Below the pieces are notes generated by a model. That model made no database searches, had not been told where the DNA came from, and saw only the letters and a list, made by a program, of their open reading frames with translations. The translations under genes and the position numbers were made by a program. This document shows, piece by piece, positions 1,782 through 10,423 of a DNA stretch of 11,547 bases. The stretch is from a virus (taxonomy: Duplodnaviria > Heunggongvirae > Uroviricota > Caudoviricetes): IMG/VR virus record IMGVR_UViG_2529292734_000012. One strand, written 5' to 3'. The first letter of the stretch is position 1. Each line of letters opens with the position of its first letter.

Positions 1782-3023
1782 ATGGCACGAAAAACCACCC
1801 CACTAACTATTACGGAGATCAAAAACGCACGACCAGGGGAAAAGGAATATACCCTGCAGGATGGCGGAGGATTATTTCTTCTGGTGAAGCCCTCCGGATC
1901 AAAAATCTGGCGTTTTACGTACTACCGCCCGGCAGATAAAAAACGGACTATTATCAGCCTTGGATCGCTAAATGATGTTTCCCTGTCTGATGCCAGAGAG
2001 CGACGGAATGAATACAGGTCACTCATAGCAAAGGGAACTGACCCACAGGACTACGAACGCCGGAAACGTGAAGCAGAGAGCAGGAAAAAGGGCAACACGT
2101 TCGAAAAAGTTGCCTTGGACTGGTACGAGATGAAAAAAGGCCAGAATCTGGCTTACAACACGATTAAGGATATCTGGCGATCCCTGGAAAAATACGTATT
2201 CCCGTACATCGGAAACACGCCAATAGATACCCTCACCGCTCGCCGCTTTGTTGAGATACTCACACCCATTAAAGCACGCGGCAACCTGGAAACTCTGAAA
2301 CGCGTTTTACAACGCATCAATGAAGTGATGGATTTTGCTGCCAACAGTGGGCTGATTGACATCAACACCGCCGCGAACGTCCGCAAGGCATTCCCTTCCC
2401 CCACTAAAAAGCATATGCCAACCATCCGACCGGAACAGCTACCGCAGCTAATGCACGATTTATCGGTCGCCAGCATAGAACGGCAAACCAGATTGCTAAT
2501 CGAGTGGCAACTGCTGACCGTAGCACGCCCAGCCGAAGCAGCCGCCGCACGCTGGGAAGAAATAGATCTCGATGCCGAAACATGGACGATTCCAGCCGGA
2601 CGCATGAAGATGCGCCGTGACCATGTGATCCCTCTTTGCGGTCAGGCGATGGCTGTACTGGAAACAATGAAGCCAATCAGCGCACACAGGGAACATGTTT
2701 TTCCCAGCCTTAAAAATCCAATACTGCCAATGAGCAGCCAGACCGCTAACGCTGCATTGCGCCGGATGGGATACGCTGGTGTGCTGGTGTCTCACGGATT
2801 ACGCGCCATATTCAGTACAGCAGCGAACGAGGAAGGATTCGAGCCGGACGTAATCGAGGCCGCACTCGCACACGTGGACACGAACGAGGTAAGGCGAGCA
2901 TATAACCGAAGTAACTACCTGGAAAAACGTGTAGTACTTATGCGCTGGTGGGGTGAATTTGTGGAAGCCGCAGCAACCGGAGTGACCATAGCCAGTGGTA
3001 AAAGGGGTATCCGTGCGGTGTAA
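1782..3023 (+). CDS. int: Tyrosine site-specific integrase, P4-like family (413 aa)
   Basis: Located about 200 bp downstream of a tRNA gene. N-terminal arm-binding-like region (GLFLLVKPSGSKIWRFTYY). C-terminal catalytic motifs HGLRAIFST (H-x-x-R) and RAYNRSNY (catalytic Tyr region). Confidence 0.9.
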   Translation: MARKTTPLTITEIKNARPGEKEYTLQDGGGLFLLVKPSGSKIWRFTYYRPADKKRTIISLGSLNDVSLSDARERRNEYRSLIAKGTDPQDYERRKREAESRKKGNTFEKVALDWYEMKKGQNLAYNTIKDIWRSLEKYVFPYIGNTPIDTLTARRFVEILTPIKARGNLETLKRVLQRINEVMDFAANSGLIDINTAANVRKAFPSPTKKHMPTIRPEQLPQLMHDLSVASIERQTRLLIEWQLLTVARPAEAAAARWEEIDLDAETWTIPAGRMKMRRDHVIPLCGQAMAVLETMKPISAHREHVFPSLKNPILPMSSQTANAALRRMGYAGVLVSHGLRAIFSTAANEEGFEPDVIEAALAHVDTNEVRRAYNRSNYLEKRVVLMRWWGEFVEAAATGVTIASGKRGIRAV

Positions 3024-3026
3024 CTG

Positions 3027-3076
3027 TACAAAAAACCAGTACAACCAGTGCAAACCATGCTAAACCATCGTATAAT
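3027..3076 (+). promoter_or_regulatory. Degenerate ~9-bp tandem repeats overlapping a putative promoter (-10 TATAAT at 3071-3076)
   Basis: CCAGTACAA / CCAGTGCAA / ACCATGCTAA / ACCATCGTA in tandem, immediately followed by TATAAT. Confidence 0.35.
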
Positions 3077-3136
3077 CGCCTATCTCCTCAACAGACAAGG
3101 AAAAACCCGACTCATGAGAAATCGAGATTTATTGAA

Positions 3137-3379
3137 ATGGTCTGGCACGAAAAATCATCCAATGTCTGCGGTGAAGGGCTGCAACTGGCGTTAATGGCAA
3201 ATCGTGAATTCTGGTCAACATACGATCCGGAAGACAAATCAACAGCCCCCACAAAACACGAGGTAGTCAGTTTTTTACGCTCGCGTGGCGCATCGAAAAA
3301 TCTGGCTGAAAGCATCGACAAGGTGCTGAGGCCCACCAGCCTTAAATGTGGTGGGCGACCTAAGAAGTGGAAACGGTAA
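3137..3379 (+). CDS. Hypothetical small protein (80 aa; alternative start at 3194), basic C-terminus
   Basis: ORF sits between a promoter-like element and a strong intrinsic terminator. There is no convincing Shine-Dalgarno sequence and no family was recognised. Confidence 0.35.
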   Translation: MVWHEKSSNVCGEGLQLALMANREFWSTYDPEDKSTAPTKHEVVSFLRSRGASKNLAESIDKVLRPTSLKCGGRPKKWKR

Positions 3380-3416: not shown

Positions 3417-3449
3417 AAAAAGAAAGCGTAATCAATGAGATAAAAAACA

Positions 3450-3484
3450 GTGAGTACCGTTTTAAAACGGTGAGTACTGTTTTT
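3450..3484. promoter_or_regulatory. Direct repeat GTGAGTAC(C/T)GTTTT x2 flanking a perfect 16-bp palindrome ACCGTTTTAAAACGGT, upstream of the AlpA-like gene
   Basis: Copies at 3450-3463 and 3470-3483; palindrome at 3456-3471. Candidate operator or activator site. Confidence 0.45.
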
Positions 3485-3548: not shown

Positions 3549-3755
3549 ATGGAAGTAATCAGAAAAATTCTTACCCGTCAGGAAGTAAAAAATATTCTGC
3601 GCATCAAGGCAGACAGTTCGCTACAGGACATGATCAACGCCGGAAAATTCCCGAAAGGCTTCAAAATCGGTCTGCGCCGTGTTGGCTGGTATGAAGATGA
3701 GGTGCAGGCCTGGTTGAAAGAACGCGAGGAAGAAGCGCGCGGAACGGCTGCGTAA
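3549..3755 (+). CDS. alpA: AlpA-family phage transcriptional regulator / excisionase-like HTH protein (68 aa)
   Basis: Short MerR-like HTH protein (LTRQEVKNILRIKADSSLQDMINAGKFPKGFKIGLRRVGWYEDEVQAWL) with the conserved Trp-containing C-terminus typical of AlpA/Vis proteins. GAGGT RBS. Position just after the integrase as in P4-like and PICI elements. Confidence 0.75.
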   Translation: MEVIRKILTRQEVKNILRIKADSSLQDMINAGKFPKGFKIGLRRVGWYEDEVQAWLKEREEEARGTAA

Positions 3756-3903
3756 TGGTGTGAGGTGTAACGCAATGAACATAACAAAAAGCGCCCCGTT
3801 GCCGGAGCGCCCTTGTGAACAATTAACCTGCTGCGAAAAAAATGGATCAGTGCAGGGGAATTATATCAACTGTGTGAAGAAGCGCCACTATTGCCGGATA
3901 ACA

Positions 3904-3934
3904 GGCAAAGAAAAGGCCACCAGTCACGGTGGCC
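3904..3934 (-). terminator. Rho-independent terminator for the minus-strand small-gene pair
   Basis: Perfect inverted repeat GGCCACC-agtcac-GGTGGCC (3915-3934); on the minus strand it is followed by TTTTCTTTG. Confidence 0.6.
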
Positions 3935-4013
3935 CTGCGACACAAATTTCGCGTTATCCCCAACGCATGAGCATCGCCAACAATGCCACATTTGCGGCTG
4001 GTGGGCAATGCAA

Positions 4014-4202
4014 TCAGTCTGGTTCAGTTCGTTGCCATACCTGCAATGAGCGCTTTTCCCTGTACTCTTTAAGAAATTGCTCAAGGGCAAAAGCACATGG
4101 CGCGAATCTTTCTGATTCATGCTCTATCTTTCTGCGCCGTCTTTTCCGTGCCGGTGATAATGTTTTGGTCAATTCTTTATCGGTCATTGTGTTGTCCTGC
4201 AT
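4014..4202 (-). CDS. Hypothetical small basic protein (62 aa; likely start at the second Met, 4187, giving 57 aa)
   Basis: AGGA lies 8 nt upstream of the ATG at 4187. KRRRRK basic cluster. Sits downstream of the RHH-like gene and upstream of the minus-strand terminator. No family recognised. Confidence 0.45.
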   Translation of the reverse strand: MQDNTMTDKELTKTLSPARKRRRRKIEHESERFAPCAFALEQFLKEYREKRSLQVWQRTEPD

Positions 4203-4244
4203 AGCAATGCGCCGTAGTTACTCACACCACGGCGCTGGTGATGG

Positions 4245-4424
4245 TTACTCCTGCTCTTTGGCCTTGCGGCGCTGGCGGCGTTTGATCTCGCCTTGCATTG
4301 ACGCAATGATGAATTGTGATGTGCTTTCGCCTGATTCTTTCACTGATTCCATGGCGTTTACTATTTCGTGTGGTACACGAGCCTTTAGAGCTTGTGATTT
4401 TGCGTTTGTTGTACCCGTTGCCAT
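4245..4424 (-). CDS. Small ribbon-helix-helix (Arc/CopG-like) DNA-binding protein, candidate repressor (59 aa)
   Basis: GAGGAA RBS 6 nt upstream of the ATG at 4424. Sequence MATGTTNAKSQALKARVPHEIVNAMESVKESGESTSQFIIASMQ fits a beta-strand/helix/helix RHH pattern. Divergent from the + strand operon promoter. Confidence 0.55.
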   Translation of the reverse strand: MATGTTNAKSQALKARVPHEIVNAMESVKESGESTSQFIIASMQGEIKRRQRRKAKEQE

Positions 4425-4485
4425 TTCTATTCCTCTGTTGGATTGGTGGGGGACAGTATACACAGAAAAAGCACAAATAAAACCC

Positions 4486-4526
4486 TTGACGTGGGCCACA
4501 CCTAAAGCATATAGTGGGCCACACCT
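4486..4526 (+). promoter_or_regulatory. Strong sigma70-like promoter for the rightward replication operon, with 13-bp direct-repeat operators overlapping -35 and -10
   Basis: TTGACG (4486-4491), 18-bp spacer, TATAGT (4510-4515). GTGGGCCACACCT at 4491-4503 and again at 4514-4526. Confidence 0.6.
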
Positions 4527-4552
4527 TGAGATTATCAAGGTGCATAGATGCA

Positions 4553-4587
4553 AAGCCCCGCAAGTGTCGTTACCACTCGCAGGGCTT
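4553..4587 (+). ncRNA. Stable stem-loop in the leader of the rightward operon (candidate regulatory or processed RNA element)
   Basis: 14-bp stem AAGCCCCGCAAGTG / CACTCGCAGGGCTT with two mismatches and a 7-nt loop; no following U-run. Lies about 30 nt downstream of the predicted transcription start. Confidence 0.3.
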
Positions 4588-4623
4588 CTAACCACCAACG
4601 ATAGCGAAAGTATCGAGGTAGCT

Positions 4624-4830
4624 ATGTTAAATCATACCACACACCCGCAAGGGCGGGACTCGTACAACCTGAATAAATACATCTGGCGTTTTATCGCCCT
4701 GAGCACGGCACAACCGCGTGTGATTACCATTGAGGCCACCAGCGAACAGGAAGCGCGTCAGCAATCTCCTGATGGCTGCGTGATGGTATTCGCTGCCCGT
4801 ATTCGCCAGGGGGTAGGCCATGTGCAATAA
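4624..4830 (+). CDS. Hypothetical protein (68 aa), first ORF of the rightward operon
   Basis: ATG at 4624 preceded by GAGGT. It is the C-terminal portion of an otherwise implausible 356-aa frame. Overlaps the next ORF start by 11 nt. Confidence 0.4.
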   Translation: MLNHTTHPQGRDSYNLNKYIWRFIALSTAQPRVITIEATSEQEARQQSPDGCVMVFAARIRQGVGHVQ

Positions 4831-5044
4831 AACCACACCGGACGCAGCAGCCGCCGCGCTCACTACGCTGATGCACGCGCTTATTGATATTTCTGTTATT
4901 GCTGACAGGGCGCATAAACACGCAGCCAGAGAATCAGAATGCATCTTCCATTATTTAGCATTTGTGCAGCTAAAAGCCGATCAGGCACTGGATAAGGCCG
5001 GAAAAATTATCATGGCTAATGTGCAGGAGGTGCACCATGCATAA
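4820..5044 (+). CDS. Hypothetical protein (74 aa)
   Basis: GGGGGTAGG RBS. Overlaps the previous ORF by 11 nt; stop overlaps the next start (ATGCATAA). Confidence 0.4.
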   Translation: MCNKTTPDAAAAALTTLMHALIDISVIADRAHKHAARESECIFHYLAFVQLKADQALDKAGKIIMANVQEVHHA

Positions 5045-5402
5045 CCTGTCAATTTCTGACCTTAACAGCATTCAGTTTGACGAGAAATTTACCGGGCAGT
5101 TGCTGGTCAATGTGGAGAACGGGCGCATAGTGCGTAATTATCACCTGCCGGATGGTGCAATTGCCGGAAGCGTTGAAGCATTGCTGGAACTGGCGGAACG
5201 TGCGCGACTGATTAAGCCGTCAACGAGCCATCACGATGATGATCTGCATTTTACCGGATGTATGGTGAGTCACTACGAAAACGGCGTCGAGGTATCCTGC
5301 GAACGGCTGCGTGATGATTGCTGTTTCGGCACACTGCCGGAATTTATCGAGTTGCTGACCAGTTGCGGTTATCAGGTCATTCAGGGGGGTAAACATGCGT
5401 GA
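5037..5402 (+). CDS. Hypothetical protein (121 aa)
   Basis: AGGAGG 6 nt upstream of the ATG at 5037 (the in-frame ATG at 5019 lacks an RBS). Translationally coupled to neighbours. Confidence 0.5.
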   Translation: MHNLSISDLNSIQFDEKFTGQLLVNVENGRIVRNYHLPDGAIAGSVEALLELAERARLIKPSTSHHDDDLHFTGCMVSHYENGVEVSCERLRDDCCFGTLPEFIELLTSCGYQVIQGGKHA

Positions 5403-5616
5403 TGATCGTTTTAATTCCCTGAAACAGGAATTTTCCGGCGTTCCTGATAATGCAGCTGATGCGCTTTCGTCAATATCTGAAATTATGCGGGTGGCTTTTT
5501 TCTTTCTTTGCACTGATGAGCATAGGGATACAGGGCTAAATATTCTTGATATCGCCGCTAACTATGCTGATTTCGTAACGGAAACTGTTTTAAGAAAAAC
5601 AACGGGTGGGGATTAA
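5395..5616 (+). CDS. Hypothetical protein (73 aa)
   Basis: Start overlaps the upstream stop (ATGCGTGA); G-rich RBS. Confidence 0.45.
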   Translation: MRDDRFNSLKQEFSGVPDNAADALSSISEIMRVAFFFLCTDEHRDTGLNILDIAANYADFVTETVLRKTTGGD

Positions 5617-5617
5617 T

Positions 5618-5851
5618 ATGCGTGATATTTACCTCGAAACAATAGACCGCGCATTTCTTGCACTTTCTCACAGTGAAAGCATGATGGAAATATTACGCAT
5701 ATGGCTTGAAACACTTGGCGACAATGAACGCGACAAACAAAAATCAAGAATTGCCACGGCATTAATAACGCTTCTTGAGCCTGTAATAATGGAACTGCAA
5801 GAAATAGATCTATTGCACGACAGATATAAAGAACAGCACACCGGAGAATAA
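5618..5851 (+). CDS. Hypothetical protein (77 aa), predicted helical
   Basis: ATG at 5618 is 1 nt after the upstream stop, preceded by GGTGGGGA. The GTG at 5606 in the ORF track is less likely. Confidence 0.45.
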   Translation: MRDIYLETIDRAFLALSHSESMMEILRIWLETLGDNERDKQKSRIATALITLLEPVIMELQEIDLLHDRYKEQHTGE

Positions 5852-5856
5852 AAATA

Positions 5857-6156
5857 ATGAAACTTAAATATTCTGGCTTAACTGCCAGTGGCAACACTCA
5901 CCCTAAATTTACGCGCGGCGATATTTACCGCGACCAGTACGGCGGCACGGTAATGATTAAGGGCGTGGAAGAACGGCGCGTAACCTACCGCCGTGAAGGT
6001 TACGAATATGATTGCGTGATGCCTGTTTATCAGTTCCGGCGTGATTTTTCTCTGGTACAGACCGCGCCGCATAACGTGTCCACCAGCAACGCCAGGGCAC
6101 GGGCAAACATCCAGAAGCTGAAAACCATGATTAACGGATTCAGGGGTAAAAAATGA
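5857..6156 (+). CDS. Hypothetical protein (99 aa), translationally coupled to the replication ATPase
   Basis: GGAGA RBS. Stop overlaps the start of the downstream gene (ATGA at 6153-6156). Confidence 0.5.
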   Translation: MKLKYSGLTASGNTHPKFTRGDIYRDQYGGTVMIKGVEERRVTYRREGYEYDCVMPVYQFRRDFSLVQTAPHNVSTSNARARANIQKLKTMINGFRGKK

Positions 6157-7559
6157 AACTGGCACCGAACGTAAAACTGTTACCGAAAGATAAACACACT
6201 GAGGCGGTTATTTTTGCGGGTGATAATGCTCACTCCTTTGCAGAACATTACATGATTGCACAGGCCAAAAAAGCAGGCGATCCCATCCCTCCGGTTTACC
6301 TGGGCCGTTATCAGTTAAGCGAACTGGACAATTTACAGATTGTTGATGAAGGACGATACAGAGCAAAGGTCATACGCGCCGGAAACCTGGACGATATGCA
6401 GATGCTGACCATTGCCACCAAACTGGCGATCGCAGGTGTCCGGGAAGCGCGGTTACTTTCAGAGAATTTCGAACTACTGGAGGACTGGAGCGAGCAACTA
6501 CCCCGACTTAAAGAAACCTGGGAACGCGGGGAAAGTCTGGTCATGAATGGCGGAAAGCGAAAAATCACACTTCCCATCTCATGGGGTTCTGAGGGATTCG
6601 ACGCGCAGCAAAGCTACGTAATTAAGGGGCTTATTCCGGCTGAATCATTATGCAGCACCTACGGGGCCAGCGGTTCTTATAAATCGTTCCTGGCTATTTC
6701 CTGGTCGTGTCATGTTGCCACAGGTATAGCATGGGGAGGCCGCAGGGTAAGTAAGGGCGCGGTTATCTATATCGCTGGCGAAGGCAGTATGGGCGTAAAA
6801 CGCCGCGTTAAGGCGTGGGAGATAACCCACGACAAGGTGGTTACGGATTTGTGCATCGTTAACGCGCCTGTCTTCCCTGCATCGCCTGACTATGTGGAGC
6901 AGGTTATCAGGACCGCCGGATTAGTGCAAGACAGAACGGGCGAAAGGGTGCGGATGATTGTCATTGACACACTGGCCCGTTGCTTTGGTGGTCATGATGA
7001 AAATGACTCCCGCGACATGGGGGCGTTTATCCAGGGGTGTGACGCGATAAAGCAGGCCACGGGGGCCACGGTTCTGGTTGTGCATCATTCCGGCAAGGAT
7101 GAGACGAAAGGGGCGCGGGGTTCCAGTGCATTCCGTGCGGCGCTTGATGCTGAGTTCCGAATCAGTCGGGAACATTCAGAGGCTACGGCGCTGGTTGCAG
7201 CATGTACGAAGATGAAGGACGCGGAGGAGCCAAAAGAAAGCGCCTACGACCTTAAGAGCGTGGAGGTATTTACGGATCCTGAGGGTGAAGAAATCGTGTC
7301 CATGGTGGTGATTGACGTTCCCCGCGCCCCTGCTGAACTGGAGCGCATAGAGGAGGCCGGGAACAAGACGGAAAATCACACGGCTTTATGGGGTTGTATC
7401 CGGTCACGTATACAGCATGGTGATAAATGCACGATCCCGCTGCTACGTGATGACATGAAAAAGCTGGGATATGACACAAAACACCTTAAACGATGGTTAG
7501 CCAAACTGGAAAAAGACGGCGTGATTTGCGTCGATGGGGATGATGTTCACCCACTGTAA
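6153..7559 (+). CDS. Replication initiator/helicase-like P-loop ATPase (RepA/AAA_25-like RecA-fold), 468 aa
   Basis: Deviant Walker A GASGSYKS, Walker B-like MIVIDTLARCF, and VLVVHHSGKDETKGARGSSAF typical of RepA/AAA_25-type ATPases. Followed immediately by an iteron array. Confidence 0.75.
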   Translation: MKLAPNVKLLPKDKHTEAVIFAGDNAHSFAEHYMIAQAKKAGDPIPPVYLGRYQLSELDNLQIVDEGRYRAKVIRAGNLDDMQMLTIATKLAIAGVREARLLSENFELLEDWSEQLPRLKETWERGESLVMNGGKRKITLPISWGSEGFDAQQSYVIKGLIPAESLCSTYGASGSYKSFLAISWSCHVATGIAWGGRRVSKGAVIYIAGEGSMGVKRRVKAWEITHDKVVTDLCIVNAPVFPASPDYVEQVIRTAGLVQDRTGERVRMIVIDTLARCFGGHDENDSRDMGAFIQGCDAIKQATGATVLVVHHSGKDETKGARGSSAFRAALDAEFRISREHSEATALVAACTKMKDAEEPKESAYDLKSVEVFTDPEGEEIVSMVVIDVPRAPAELERIEEAGNKTENHTALWGCIRSRIQHGDKCTIPLLRDDMKKLGYDTKHLKRWLAKLEKDGVICVDGDDVHPL

Positions 7560-7760
7560 AAAGTGGGCGTTAAAAGTGGGAATAGTGGGTAATTTAACTG
7601 GAATTTAACAAAATCGCCCACTTTCCCACGTGTATACATCCCAAAAAGTGGGCACTAAAAAAATTCTTATGAAACAGTACGATATAAAACCACAAAATCC
7701 CAGGTGGGACGAAGTGGGAAACCATGAAAAGTGGGTAGAAAAAGTGGGCACAGGTGGGCG
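7550..7760. repeat. Iteron-type origin of replication: at least 9 direct and 3 inverted copies of (A)AAGTGGG flanking an AT-rich core
   Basis: AGTGGG/GGTGGG at 7562, 7575, 7584, 7647, 7704, 7713, 7730, 7743, 7754; inverted CCCACT/TCCCAC at 7550, 7617, 7624. AT-rich AATTTAAC x2 at 7591-7609. Lies directly 3' of the rep ATPase gene. Confidence 0.65.
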
Positions 7761-10105: not shown

Positions 10106-10423
10106 ATGATTGAAAGAGATAGTCAGCTACGAGAGCTATTAGATATCGATGACAAAATGAGTTTAAGCGAGCGCCTTGTTGATATGGATCAGGTAGTGGA
10201 GCTTACAACCCTTAGCCGTCGCACATTGCTAAACCTTGAGGCTCGCGGAGAGTTCCCCGAACGCGTACAGGTTACGAAAGGGCGCAAGGCATGGTATTTA
10301 AGCGAGGTTGTTGCGTGGATTAACAACATTCCGCGCGCATCAAATTATTGCCTTGTTCCCACCCCGAAAAACCTGATGCGGCGTTATGCCTCAAGATTGA
10401 ACGCGCCAGGCGTAATGCCCTGA
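10106..10423 (+). CDS. HTH DNA-binding protein (AlpA/MerR-like HTH_17 type), 105 aa
   Basis: VVELTTLSRRTLLNLEARGEFPERVQVTKGRKAWYLSEVVAWI resembles the AlpA/excisionase-type HTH. GAGGT RBS. Lies between the decoration gene and cos. Confidence 0.55.
   Translation: MIERDSQLRELLDIDDKMSLSERLVDMDQVVELTTLSRRTLLNLEARGEFPERVQVTKGRKAWYLSEVVAWINNIPRASNYCLVPTPKNLMRRYASRLNAPGVMP

Follow-up and report, generated by a model that had tools for sequence, protein, structure and literature searches.

Six small genes ahead of a replication gene are probably the promoter-proximal half of an early operon in a phage-inducible chromosomal island of the EcCICFT073 type

Introduction

Induction by a helper phage, packaging and transfer have been demonstrated for EcCICFT073, the prototype of the phage-inducible chromosomal islands (PICIs) of Gram-negative bacteria, in which AlpA is the activator of the downstream genes and over-expression of AlpA alone leads to uncontrolled island replication and a loss of viability (PMC6092414). 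RgdR is encoded by all Escherichia coli PICIs analysed by Fillol-Salom et al., and the global repressor in Gram-negative PICIs is described as unclear (PMC6092414). Here, we analyse a block of six small open reading frames (ORFs), O1 to O6, at positions 4624-6156 of the IMG/VR virus record IMGVR_UViG_2529292734_000012 (Caudoviricetes), a stretch of 11,547 nucleotides that is referred to below, at its full length, as the window. By gene content and gene order, the block is assigned to an already catalogued type of element: it corresponds to the early operon (for regulation and replication) of a PICI of the EcCICFT073 type and would be the promoter-proximal half of that operon. We place the probability of this explanation as a whole, including the mechanism proposed in the Discussion, at about 0.7.

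Comparable gene arrangements have been described in phages P1 and P4. The P1 immI operon comprises c4 RNA, icd and ant1/2, and in the P1 record Icd is annotated as 'inhibitor of cell division; apparently required for expression of ant', the latter being the downstream gene. The left operon of P4 has the order vis, eta/kil, epsilon, orf151, cnr and alpha; Kil is a truncated, nested C-terminal form of Eta that 'functions in cell killing' (PMC10111431).

Two further systems were described from bacterial phenotypes. RgdR of enterohaemorrhagic E. coli (EHEC) O157:H7, encoded by ECs1581 on O-island 51 (OI-51, also CP-933C or Sp7), activates LEE1 in the LEE (locus of enterocyte effacement) and type III secretion and represses motility, as shown for both ECs1581 and its homologue c1493; the protein binds DNA weakly and non-specifically, and the R20C variant of strain ED1a abolishes the activation of the type III secretion system (PMC3378721). 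Deletion of rgdR in uninduced EHEC lowers type III secretion and raises motility, deletion of the whole of OI-51 lowers colonisation of sheep, and RgdR homologues are also present in E. coli lacking the LEE (PMC3378721). In ECOR61, cell death triggered by phage orf24 is suppressed when transposons insert into an Icd-like gene of 366 nt or into either of the two ORFs behind it (186 and 192 nt, with overlaps of 8 and 1 nt); six linked genes, including a primase gene, are needed to rebuild the phenotype, and the Icd-like gene is essential (Silas et al. 2023).

Results

The gene order of the window is that of EcCICFT073: int, alpA, YlcI/YnfO (leftward), an Icd-like gene, small ORFs, a DUF4222 gene, rep, iterons, SSB, capsid, decoration and terS. 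In both islands, YlcI/YnfO is one of two leftward genes. The left-end hallmark of a PICI is present, with the tyrosine integrase gene int (1782-3023) followed by the co-oriented alpA (3549-3755, plus strand; 68 aa; Pfam Phage_AlpA, 5.6e-9), the PICI activator gene, 5' of the block and beside the attachment site; to judge from its flanks, the island is integrated at tRNA-Pro(GGG) (1497-1573), adjoining yejM (52-1422). The replication hallmark can likewise be read from the DNA: the six ORFs are followed by the gene of a RepA-like AAA_25 helicase (6153-7559, plus strand; Pfam AAA_25, 3.4e-42), referred to as rep, and then by direct and inverted AAAAGTGGG iterons directly 3' of rep (7558-7753, plus strand), which are a putative origin, probably that of the island. 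Further 3' of rep lie a hypothetical ORF and the genes for SSB, a lambda-E-like major capsid protein, a head-decoration protein, a helix-turn-helix (HTH) protein and the small terminase. A PICI was taken to span ~10-15 kb without lysis or tail genes; the late genes of the window are capsid, decoration, HTH and terS only, and the window stops within the island. The order in Sp7 of EHEC strain Sakai agrees with the left half of the window.

At the level of single proteins, the identities to EcCICFT073 are 97% for O1, 74% for O4, 86% for O5 and 95% for O6, and the promoter, repeats and leader in front of the block are nearly identical in the two islands. The islands differ in their replication genes, EcCICFT073 encoding a D5-type primase and the window a RepA-like helicase, and in their integration sites, since tRNA-Pro next to yejM is not the site of EcCICFT073. 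Moreover, the 76-aa second ORF of EcCICFT073 has no counterpart in the window, O3 is present in the window and absent from EcCICFT073 (and from Sakai), and the O2 proteins of the two islands have only their first 24 aa in common. The original prediction, made from the letters of the window, had regarded the early region of a satellite as a likely seat of host-takeover and helper-directed factors, which is apt, as the block occupies the alpA-to-pri/rep region of a PICI.

The same prediction took the six consecutive small ORFs, 68-121 aa long, for real genes. To examine their conservation, we used 89 related sequences, including the window, from complete E. coli genomes, IMG/VR contigs, Shigella and E. 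albertii, and calculated the ratio of nonsynonymous to synonymous substitution rates (dN/dS) against the window, pooled over 14-47 unique variants from these loci. The ratio was 0.29 for O1 (4624-4830), 0.43 for O2 (4820-5044), 0.35 for O4 (5395-5616), 0.38 for O5 (5618-5851) and 0.29 for O6 (5857-6156). For O3 (5037-5402), the pooled value of 0.10 is based on too few differences, and a separately fetched Salmonella homologue gave a dS of 0.63, a dN of 0.17 and a ratio of 0.27. The frame was intact in 39/39 loci for O1, 70/75 for O4, 79/80 for O5 and 87/88 for O6; it was intact in 22/34 for O2 and 18/25 for O3, the others being recombinant or length variants. All six ORFs are thus real genes under purifying selection (dN/dS 0.27-0.43). 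The six are not paralogues of one another as far as BLASTP can detect.

The layout of the block points in the same direction. All six ORFs lie on the plus strand, and neighbours overlap or are separated by at most 5 nt. The overlapping start and stop codons claimed in the original prediction are present at O1/O2 (11 nt), O2/O3 (8 nt, ATGCATAA, at 5037), O3/O4 (8 nt, ATGCGTGA, at 5395) and O6/Rep (4 nt, ATGA, at 6153), and they are absent at O4/O5 and O5/O6, where gaps of 1 nt and 5 nt were found. Its claim of consistent ribosome-binding sites is borne out by a Shine-Dalgarno (SD)-like site at every start, with anti-SD duplexes of -6.4 to -11.6 kcal/mol against a background across the window of -2.7 +/- 2.6 kcal/mol, in which -6 is reached at 11% of positions. 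The single upstream promoter that it had proposed also agrees with our results: one strong sigma-70-like site is present at 4486-4515, and no terminator-like site was found on the plus strand between this promoter and 7559, the end of rep. The ORFs are short and four of them carry no functional annotation, which might suggest that some or all are chance open frames; this is refuted by the conservation analysis, and the SD-like sites, the frames intact in most of the 89 loci and the matches of all six proteins to PHROG families (E<=1e-28) argue against it as well, so that we regard it as improbable in the extreme.

When reference proteins were mapped onto the 89 loci, an invariant order emerged: leftward YlcI, Icd-like gene, (CFT073 ORF2 type), (O2 or CFT073 ORF3 type), (O3), O4, O5, RgdR and a replication gene, the types in brackets being variable. 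The first gene is always Icd-like and the last always RgdR. The replication gene that follows encodes a RepA-like helicase, a D5-type primase or a larger primase, and all three types share a homologous N-terminal domain of ~126 aa that is 44-45% identical. The middle of the block is a mosaic of cassettes, O3 being optional and O4-O5-O6 forming a conserved core. A minimal version in E. albertii consists of an Icd-like gene, one ORF of 61 aa, an RgdR-like gene and a primase gene; in a Salmonella PICI, the order is Icd-like gene, O3, DUF4222 gene and primase gene.

The original prediction had recognised no family for any of the six, which holds for the function of O2-O5 and does not hold for O1 and O6, for which profile searches gave clear assignments. 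O1 (68 aa) matches NCBIfam NF033153, the 48-residue Icd-like domain of the P1 Icd/P4 Kil family, at 70.3 bits (E 1e-19; curated cutoff 25). The same model matches P1 Icd at 52.6 bits, the P4 137-aa ORF at 73.9 bits (7.8e-21, residues 85-132) and the counterparts of O1 in Sakai and E. albertii; in BLASTP, O1 and P1 Icd are 37% identical over 43 aa (E 1e-7). By these matches, O1 is homologous to P1 Icd and to the Kil part of P4 Eta, and by family membership O1 may block host division or growth. The P4 137-aa ORF, named 'cI gene product' in old records, is eta. A 'transcriptional repressor' label attached to the Icd-like PHROG families phrog_6196/phrog_1743 was probably taken over from that obsolete P4 annotation (L098, 8168-8584); since the label would be inherited from the eta/kil ORF, it provides no evidence for O1 as a repressor. 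A tblastn search of GenBank phages with O1 gave one match, to a 16.5-kb 'induced prophage'.

The resemblance to P4 extends beyond O1. The left operon of P4 and the window have the same order and logic, namely an AlpA/Vis homologue (AlpA and Vis are 30% identical, E 8e-8), a long frame with a nested Icd-like C-terminus, small proteins, and a small protein directly before the primase or helicase. P4 epsilon, an anti-repressor acting on the helper, sits at the place that is equivalent to the small ORFs of the window. No sequence similarity was found between O2-O6 and epsilon, orf151 or cnr; homology between O6 and orf151 was considered and rejected, the alignment being weak (E 0.06) and without backing from Pfam. 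P1 immI is similar to the window in its homologous first gene, the structured leader 5' of it and the translational coupling to the following gene, and differs in that an antirepressor lies downstream, where the window has small ORFs and a replication protein.

The ECOR61 locus offers a different view of such a block. The lengths and overlaps of the two small ORFs reported for ECOR61 equal those of Sakai ECs1578 and ECs1579 behind ECs1577, and on this match of gene lengths and overlaps, as distinct from sequence, we infer that what was described in ECOR61 as a 'superinfection exclusion system' is a Sakai-type PICI's early operon. It could be argued that the block serves mainly in abortive infection or superinfection exclusion, any satellite role being secondary, as a module in which a phage accessory protein triggers the Icd-like effector and this effector, aided by the neighbouring small proteins and the primase, stops or kills the cell and thereby protects the population. 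The suppressor insertions, which hit the Icd-like gene and the two ORFs after it, and the abolition of death upon removal of the Icd-like gene (Silas et al. 2023), are what such a module would predict. However, given that the genes of ECOR61 agree with those of the PICI operon in length and overlap, induction of a satellite explains the triggered death equally well, and over-expression of AlpA alone is already sufficient for uncontrolled replication and loss of viability (PMC6092414). In addition, none of the six proteins gave a significant match to a PADLOC model, and the variable genes hit by the insertions are absent from the window. We therefore consider a primarily defensive module unlikely and retain the early PICI operon as the preferred reading.

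O6 (99 aa) matches DUF4222 (Pfam PF13973) at 85.7 bits, with an E-value of 1.6e-24 and a gathering score of 27, and is 95% identical to c1493 of CFT073 and 80% to EHEC RgdR (ECs1581), with which it shares the length, the DUF4222 domain and the RGD tripeptide at residues 20-22; it is an RgdR-family protein by these matches. The tripeptide is intact in O6 (...KFTRGDIYRD...) and appears as TRGD or MRGD in 88/89 loci, whereas across the DUF4222 family its first residue varies (RGD, NGD, PGD, HGD) and GD(I/F)(Y/F)RD.YG is retained. In contrast to EHEC, the host of the window may lack the LEE. An AlphaFold2 model built from a 47-sequence alignment predicts a five-stranded SH3/Tudor/KOW-like barrel in the core (residues 21-66, predicted local distance difference test [pLDDT] ~90), followed by a less confident C-terminal helix; Foldseek returned E-values of at least 0.015 for this model, and the predicted barrel is too common a fold for a functional call.

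The genomic position of O6 is more telling. The rgdR stop codon overlaps the start of the replication gene as ATGA in 89/89 PICI loci, whichever of the three types of replication protein follows. Directly after RgdR comes the shared N-terminal module: over residues 1-126 of Rep (6153-6530), the identity to the N-terminal ends of the CFT073 and Sakai primases, which differ from Rep elsewhere, is 44-45%. Short DUF4222 genes were also found in lambdoid prophages of E. coli, Citrobacter, Salmonella and Providencia, where they lie between cII and an O-like initiator gene and overlap the initiator start (L089, 3480-3659; L090-L094, ~3001-3186). Because the small protein is fixed in front of four unrelated initiator types, its role appears to be tied to the replication module. 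P4 Cnr, at the position before alpha, regulates alpha; Cnr and RgdR have no sequence similarity.

This fixed position bears on whether the small genes are instead host-benefit cargo ('morons'), that is, constitutive regulators of virulence and motility unrelated to replication or to the exploitation of a helper. The phenotype of the rgdR deletion without helper induction and the lowered sheep colonisation after OI-51 deletion (PMC3378721) would be expected of cargo, and a weak promoter-like site just 5' of O6 (5762-5790) could be taken in the same sense. Nevertheless, RgdR homologues occur in E. coli without the LEE (PMC3378721), and a place so fixed and coupled, both in the 89 PICI loci with their three replication-protein types and in the lambdoid prophages, is unusual for cargo, which makes this interpretation distinctly unlikely compared with that of an early PICI operon. 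The weak site itself (TTAATA-17-AATAAT, 9/12, plus strand) lies inside O5, ~70 nt 5' of rgdR, and could be a source of RgdR expression in uninduced cells.

The element, the family of O1 and that of O6 were already known, O1 and O6 being the two genes with names and some experimental study behind them, and only the four middle genes are without an assigned function. O2 (74 aa; phrog_5146, 7e-44) is the mosaic member. O3 (121 aa; phrog_340, 1.7e-28) is an optional cassette that arose as an internal tandem duplication of a unit of beta-hairpin plus helix, the halves being 34% identical (E 1e-5); its family is confined to E. coli and Salmonella, and single-repeat forms of 73-97 aa, which look like deletions between the repeats, occur. 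A tblastn search of GenBank phages with O3 gave no match. O4 (73 aa; phrog_24341, 6e-42) is 74% identical to its CFT073 counterpart, as mentioned above, and lies within the conserved core together with O5 (77 aa; phrog_2196, 7e-41), which is 86% identical to the CFT073 gene and 31% to Sakai ECs1580. The O5 family is very narrow, with only 10 representatives among 1.84 billion clustered proteins. From their sequences, O2, O4 and O5 are probably helical. Our best guess is that O2-O5 have helper- or host-directed accessory roles, because of their position, the exchange of cassettes and the precedent of P4 epsilon. A literature search on the CFT073 locus tags returned nothing relevant. O2, O3 and O4 match different parts of phrog_2512, which probably contains fused or misjoined members.

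The control region in front of O1 has several conserved features. The sigma-70-like promoter (4486-4515, plus strand; TTGACG-18-TATAGT, 10/12) retains its -35 element as TTGAC or TTGAA in five divergent island types. Two direct repeats, GTGGGCCACACCT, at 4491-4512 and 4514-4535 (plus strand) are putative operators that cover the -35/-10 elements and the start site. The divergent gene at 4245-4424 (minus strand) encodes a protein of 59 aa belonging to the YlcI/YnfO family (NCBIfam NF041551, 7.9e-19; phrog_949), a candidate repressor. Across five island types, YlcI/YnfO alleles pair 1:1 with the cores of the promoter repeats (GTG-N6-CAC...), and the variation of the protein is mostly in the N-terminal KSQALKARVPHE stretch, which looks like the strand of a ribbon-helix-helix protein. 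YlcI/YnfO and the GTGGGCCACACCT repeats are thus candidates for the missing PICI repressor and its operators; a literature search on YlcI/YnfO returned nothing relevant. Downstream of the ylcI-like gene, a leftward hypothetical ORF of 62 aa (4014-4202, minus strand) corresponds in position to a hypothetical coding sequence (CDS) placed by the NCBI Prokaryotic Genome Annotation Pipeline (PGAP) in CFT073 and other loci, and minus-strand terminator-like hairpins lie at 3936-3913 and 3814-3787.

The promoter is followed by a structured 5' leader of ~100 nt with three predicted hairpins (4522-4623, plus strand; minimum free energy -35.5 kcal/mol, z -4.3). Across eight types, 7/17 predicted pairs, all in the middle hairpin, stay paired despite two-sided changes; in the last hairpin, which is invariant, part of the O1 SD is paired. 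Such a leader, with its compensatory changes and within a P1-like layout of promoter, leader, icd and coupled downstream gene, recalls immunity of the P1 immI/P4 type, in which an antisense C4 or CI RNA would be processed from the leader 5' of the icd-like gene; C4/isrK matches have indeed been reported in some Gram-negative PICIs (PMC10111431). However, the Rfam models of C4, c4-a1b1 and isrK (RF01695, RF03163, RF01394) gave no match at E<=1 in the window and none at E<=10 in 4440-4700, although P1 C4 was found by the same search at 68.8 bits. The leader as a C4/isrK immunity RNA was rejected on these grounds, and we consider immunity of this kind very improbable: P1 has a C4 RNA and P4 a CI RNA, whereas the window has neither and its candidate regulator is a protein, YlcI/YnfO.

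A further property of the region is a stop-free extension of the O1 frame (3775-4623, plus strand). Its ATG at 3775, preceded by a GAGGTG SD, lies 20 nt behind the stop codon of alpA; from there the frame crosses both leftward genes in antisense, then the promoter and the leader, and continues into O1. The O1 frame is open for 302 codons upstream in the window and for 170-416 in most loci. There were 0 stops in 283 codons in 15/21 unique versions, the other two plus-strand frames of which contain 13-28 stops; 2000 dinucleotide shuffles gave a mean of 10.8 stops and none with 0. Where no minus-strand gene overlaps, the nonsynonymous and synonymous differences per site in the extension are similar (pN ~ pS), and no Ash or other Pfam domain was found in it, in contrast to P4 Eta, the N-terminal part of which is an Ash domain. 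The long frame is therefore kept open, even in very divergent islands, but not as a protein. In starting just after the alpA/vis homologue and in frame with the Icd-like gene, it resembles the nested eta/kil arrangement of P4, and by analogy with PMC10111431 its translation may prevent premature termination of transcription. The long frame explains the erratic long 'Icd-like' calls made by PGAP and the 'long N-terminal extension' of the Icd-like gene in Silas et al. (2023).

The distribution of the block was assessed by megablast of 4400-6300 against 5426 complete E. coli genomes. Matches were found in 1798 of these, about a third, which thus carry at least a partial match, often in several copies; the coverage of the query was at least 80% in 131. 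A scan of genome contigs with RgdR patterns returned only 2 loci, the patterns being too specific. The exact sequences of all six proteins are present in the public protein collection, where five fall into 90%-identity clusters of 87-624 member sequences each and O5 is the sole member of its own cluster, yet occurs on 429 contigs. In an E. coli chromosome that is 99.9% identical (strain F8704-2), PGAP likewise calls these six CDS. Some copies of the island show decay: an ISVsa5 insertion splits the integrase gene in F8704-2 (L001, 1658-4225), and O145:H28 RM12581 has a frameshifted O4 and an internal stop in ssb (L004, 3980-4212 and 7090-7500).

Two further features lie outside the block. A 21-nt unit, AAAACAGTGAGTACCGTTTT / AAAACGGTGAGTACTGTTTT, is present head to tail at 3443-3484, ~65 nt 5' of alpA, and was also reported as an imperfect (81%) inverted repeat; these repeats are a possible site of AlpA auto-activation or of a response to the helper. 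A second HTH gene (10106-10423) lies in the late region between the head-decoration gene and terS, and its counterpart in the 99.9% identical F8704-2 island is named 'helix-turn-helix transcriptional regulator' by PGAP.

Discussion

These results are consistent with the following course of events. In the quiescent island, the promoter at 4486-4515 would be held down by the divergent YlcI/YnfO protein, ribbon-helix-helix-like, bound to the two repeats. Once AlpA is raised by a helper phage, transcription would enter the operon from the local promoter, upon relief of the repressor, and/or by translated read-through from alpA. The block would then be read as one transcript from the local promoter, probably joined by read-through from the AlpA-activated alpA promoter, and translated as a coupled chain of O1, O2, O3, O4, O5, O6 and Rep. 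We envisage that O1 arrests host division or growth upon the switching on of the island, that O4 and O5 act as conserved small accessory proteins, and that O2 and O3 are exchangeable cassettes, most likely aimed at helper or host factors. The small, basic, SH3/Tudor-like O6, whose binding to DNA would be weak and non-specific, would assist or tune the replication protein translated from the shared transcript and, as a by-product, would disturb transcription in the host (LEE up, motility down).

Several observations weigh against this explanation. The inhibition of division by O1 is read from its family membership, the identity to P1 Icd being 37% over 43 aa, and BLASTP of O1 against P4 Eta/Kil gave nothing. 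For O2-O5, neither a Pfam or NCBIfam match at the curated thresholds nor a significant PADLOC match was obtained, the only PADLOC hit listed for the six proteins being that of O4 to a type II methyltransferase (E 0.025, 11.7 bits); sequence searches of the PDB with all six proteins likewise gave nothing significant, the best match being that of an O3 profile to the Ku70 C-terminal domain (E 0.64). The AlphaFold2 model of O3, an alpha/beta protein by its sequence, from a 21-sequence alignment was poor (pLDDT 48.6) and unusable. The 1:1 pairing of YlcI/YnfO alleles and repeats could be explained by linkage within recombination blocks. The Sakai-type operon of ECOR61 shares only O1 (56%), O5 (31%) and O6 (80%) with the window, and its two small genes hit by insertions, of the ECs1578 and ECs1579 types, have no counterpart there. 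Finally, the phenotype of the rgdR deletion in uninduced EHEC indicates that at least O6 is expressed without a helper (PMC3378721), which agrees poorly with tight repression.

As stated, the finding is modest. It reduces the unassigned part of the operon to four small proteins, a conserved pair (O4 and O5) and an exchangeable one (O2 and O3); the parts that might repay experiments are the control region and the coupling of DUF4222 genes to initiators. As to the former, it is conceivable, albeit tentative, that Gram-negative PICIs carry a P4-like two-layer switch composed of the YlcI/YnfO repressor and the stop-free frame of ~300 codons, with RgdR being first and foremost a factor of the replication module. 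According to this joint proposal, AlpA-driven, translation-coupled read-through would both silence the repressor gene and drive the operon, and the effect of RgdR on virulence would be a by-product.

The operon includes a regulator that alters type III secretion and colonisation in EHEC, and its identity as an early PICI operon would recast two published phenotypes, that of RgdR as a 'virulence regulator' and that of the 'superinfection exclusion system' of ECOR61, as reflections of PICI biology. If true, the combination of a repressor with a long-frame switch would fill an acknowledged gap, namely how Gram-negative PICIs stay silent.

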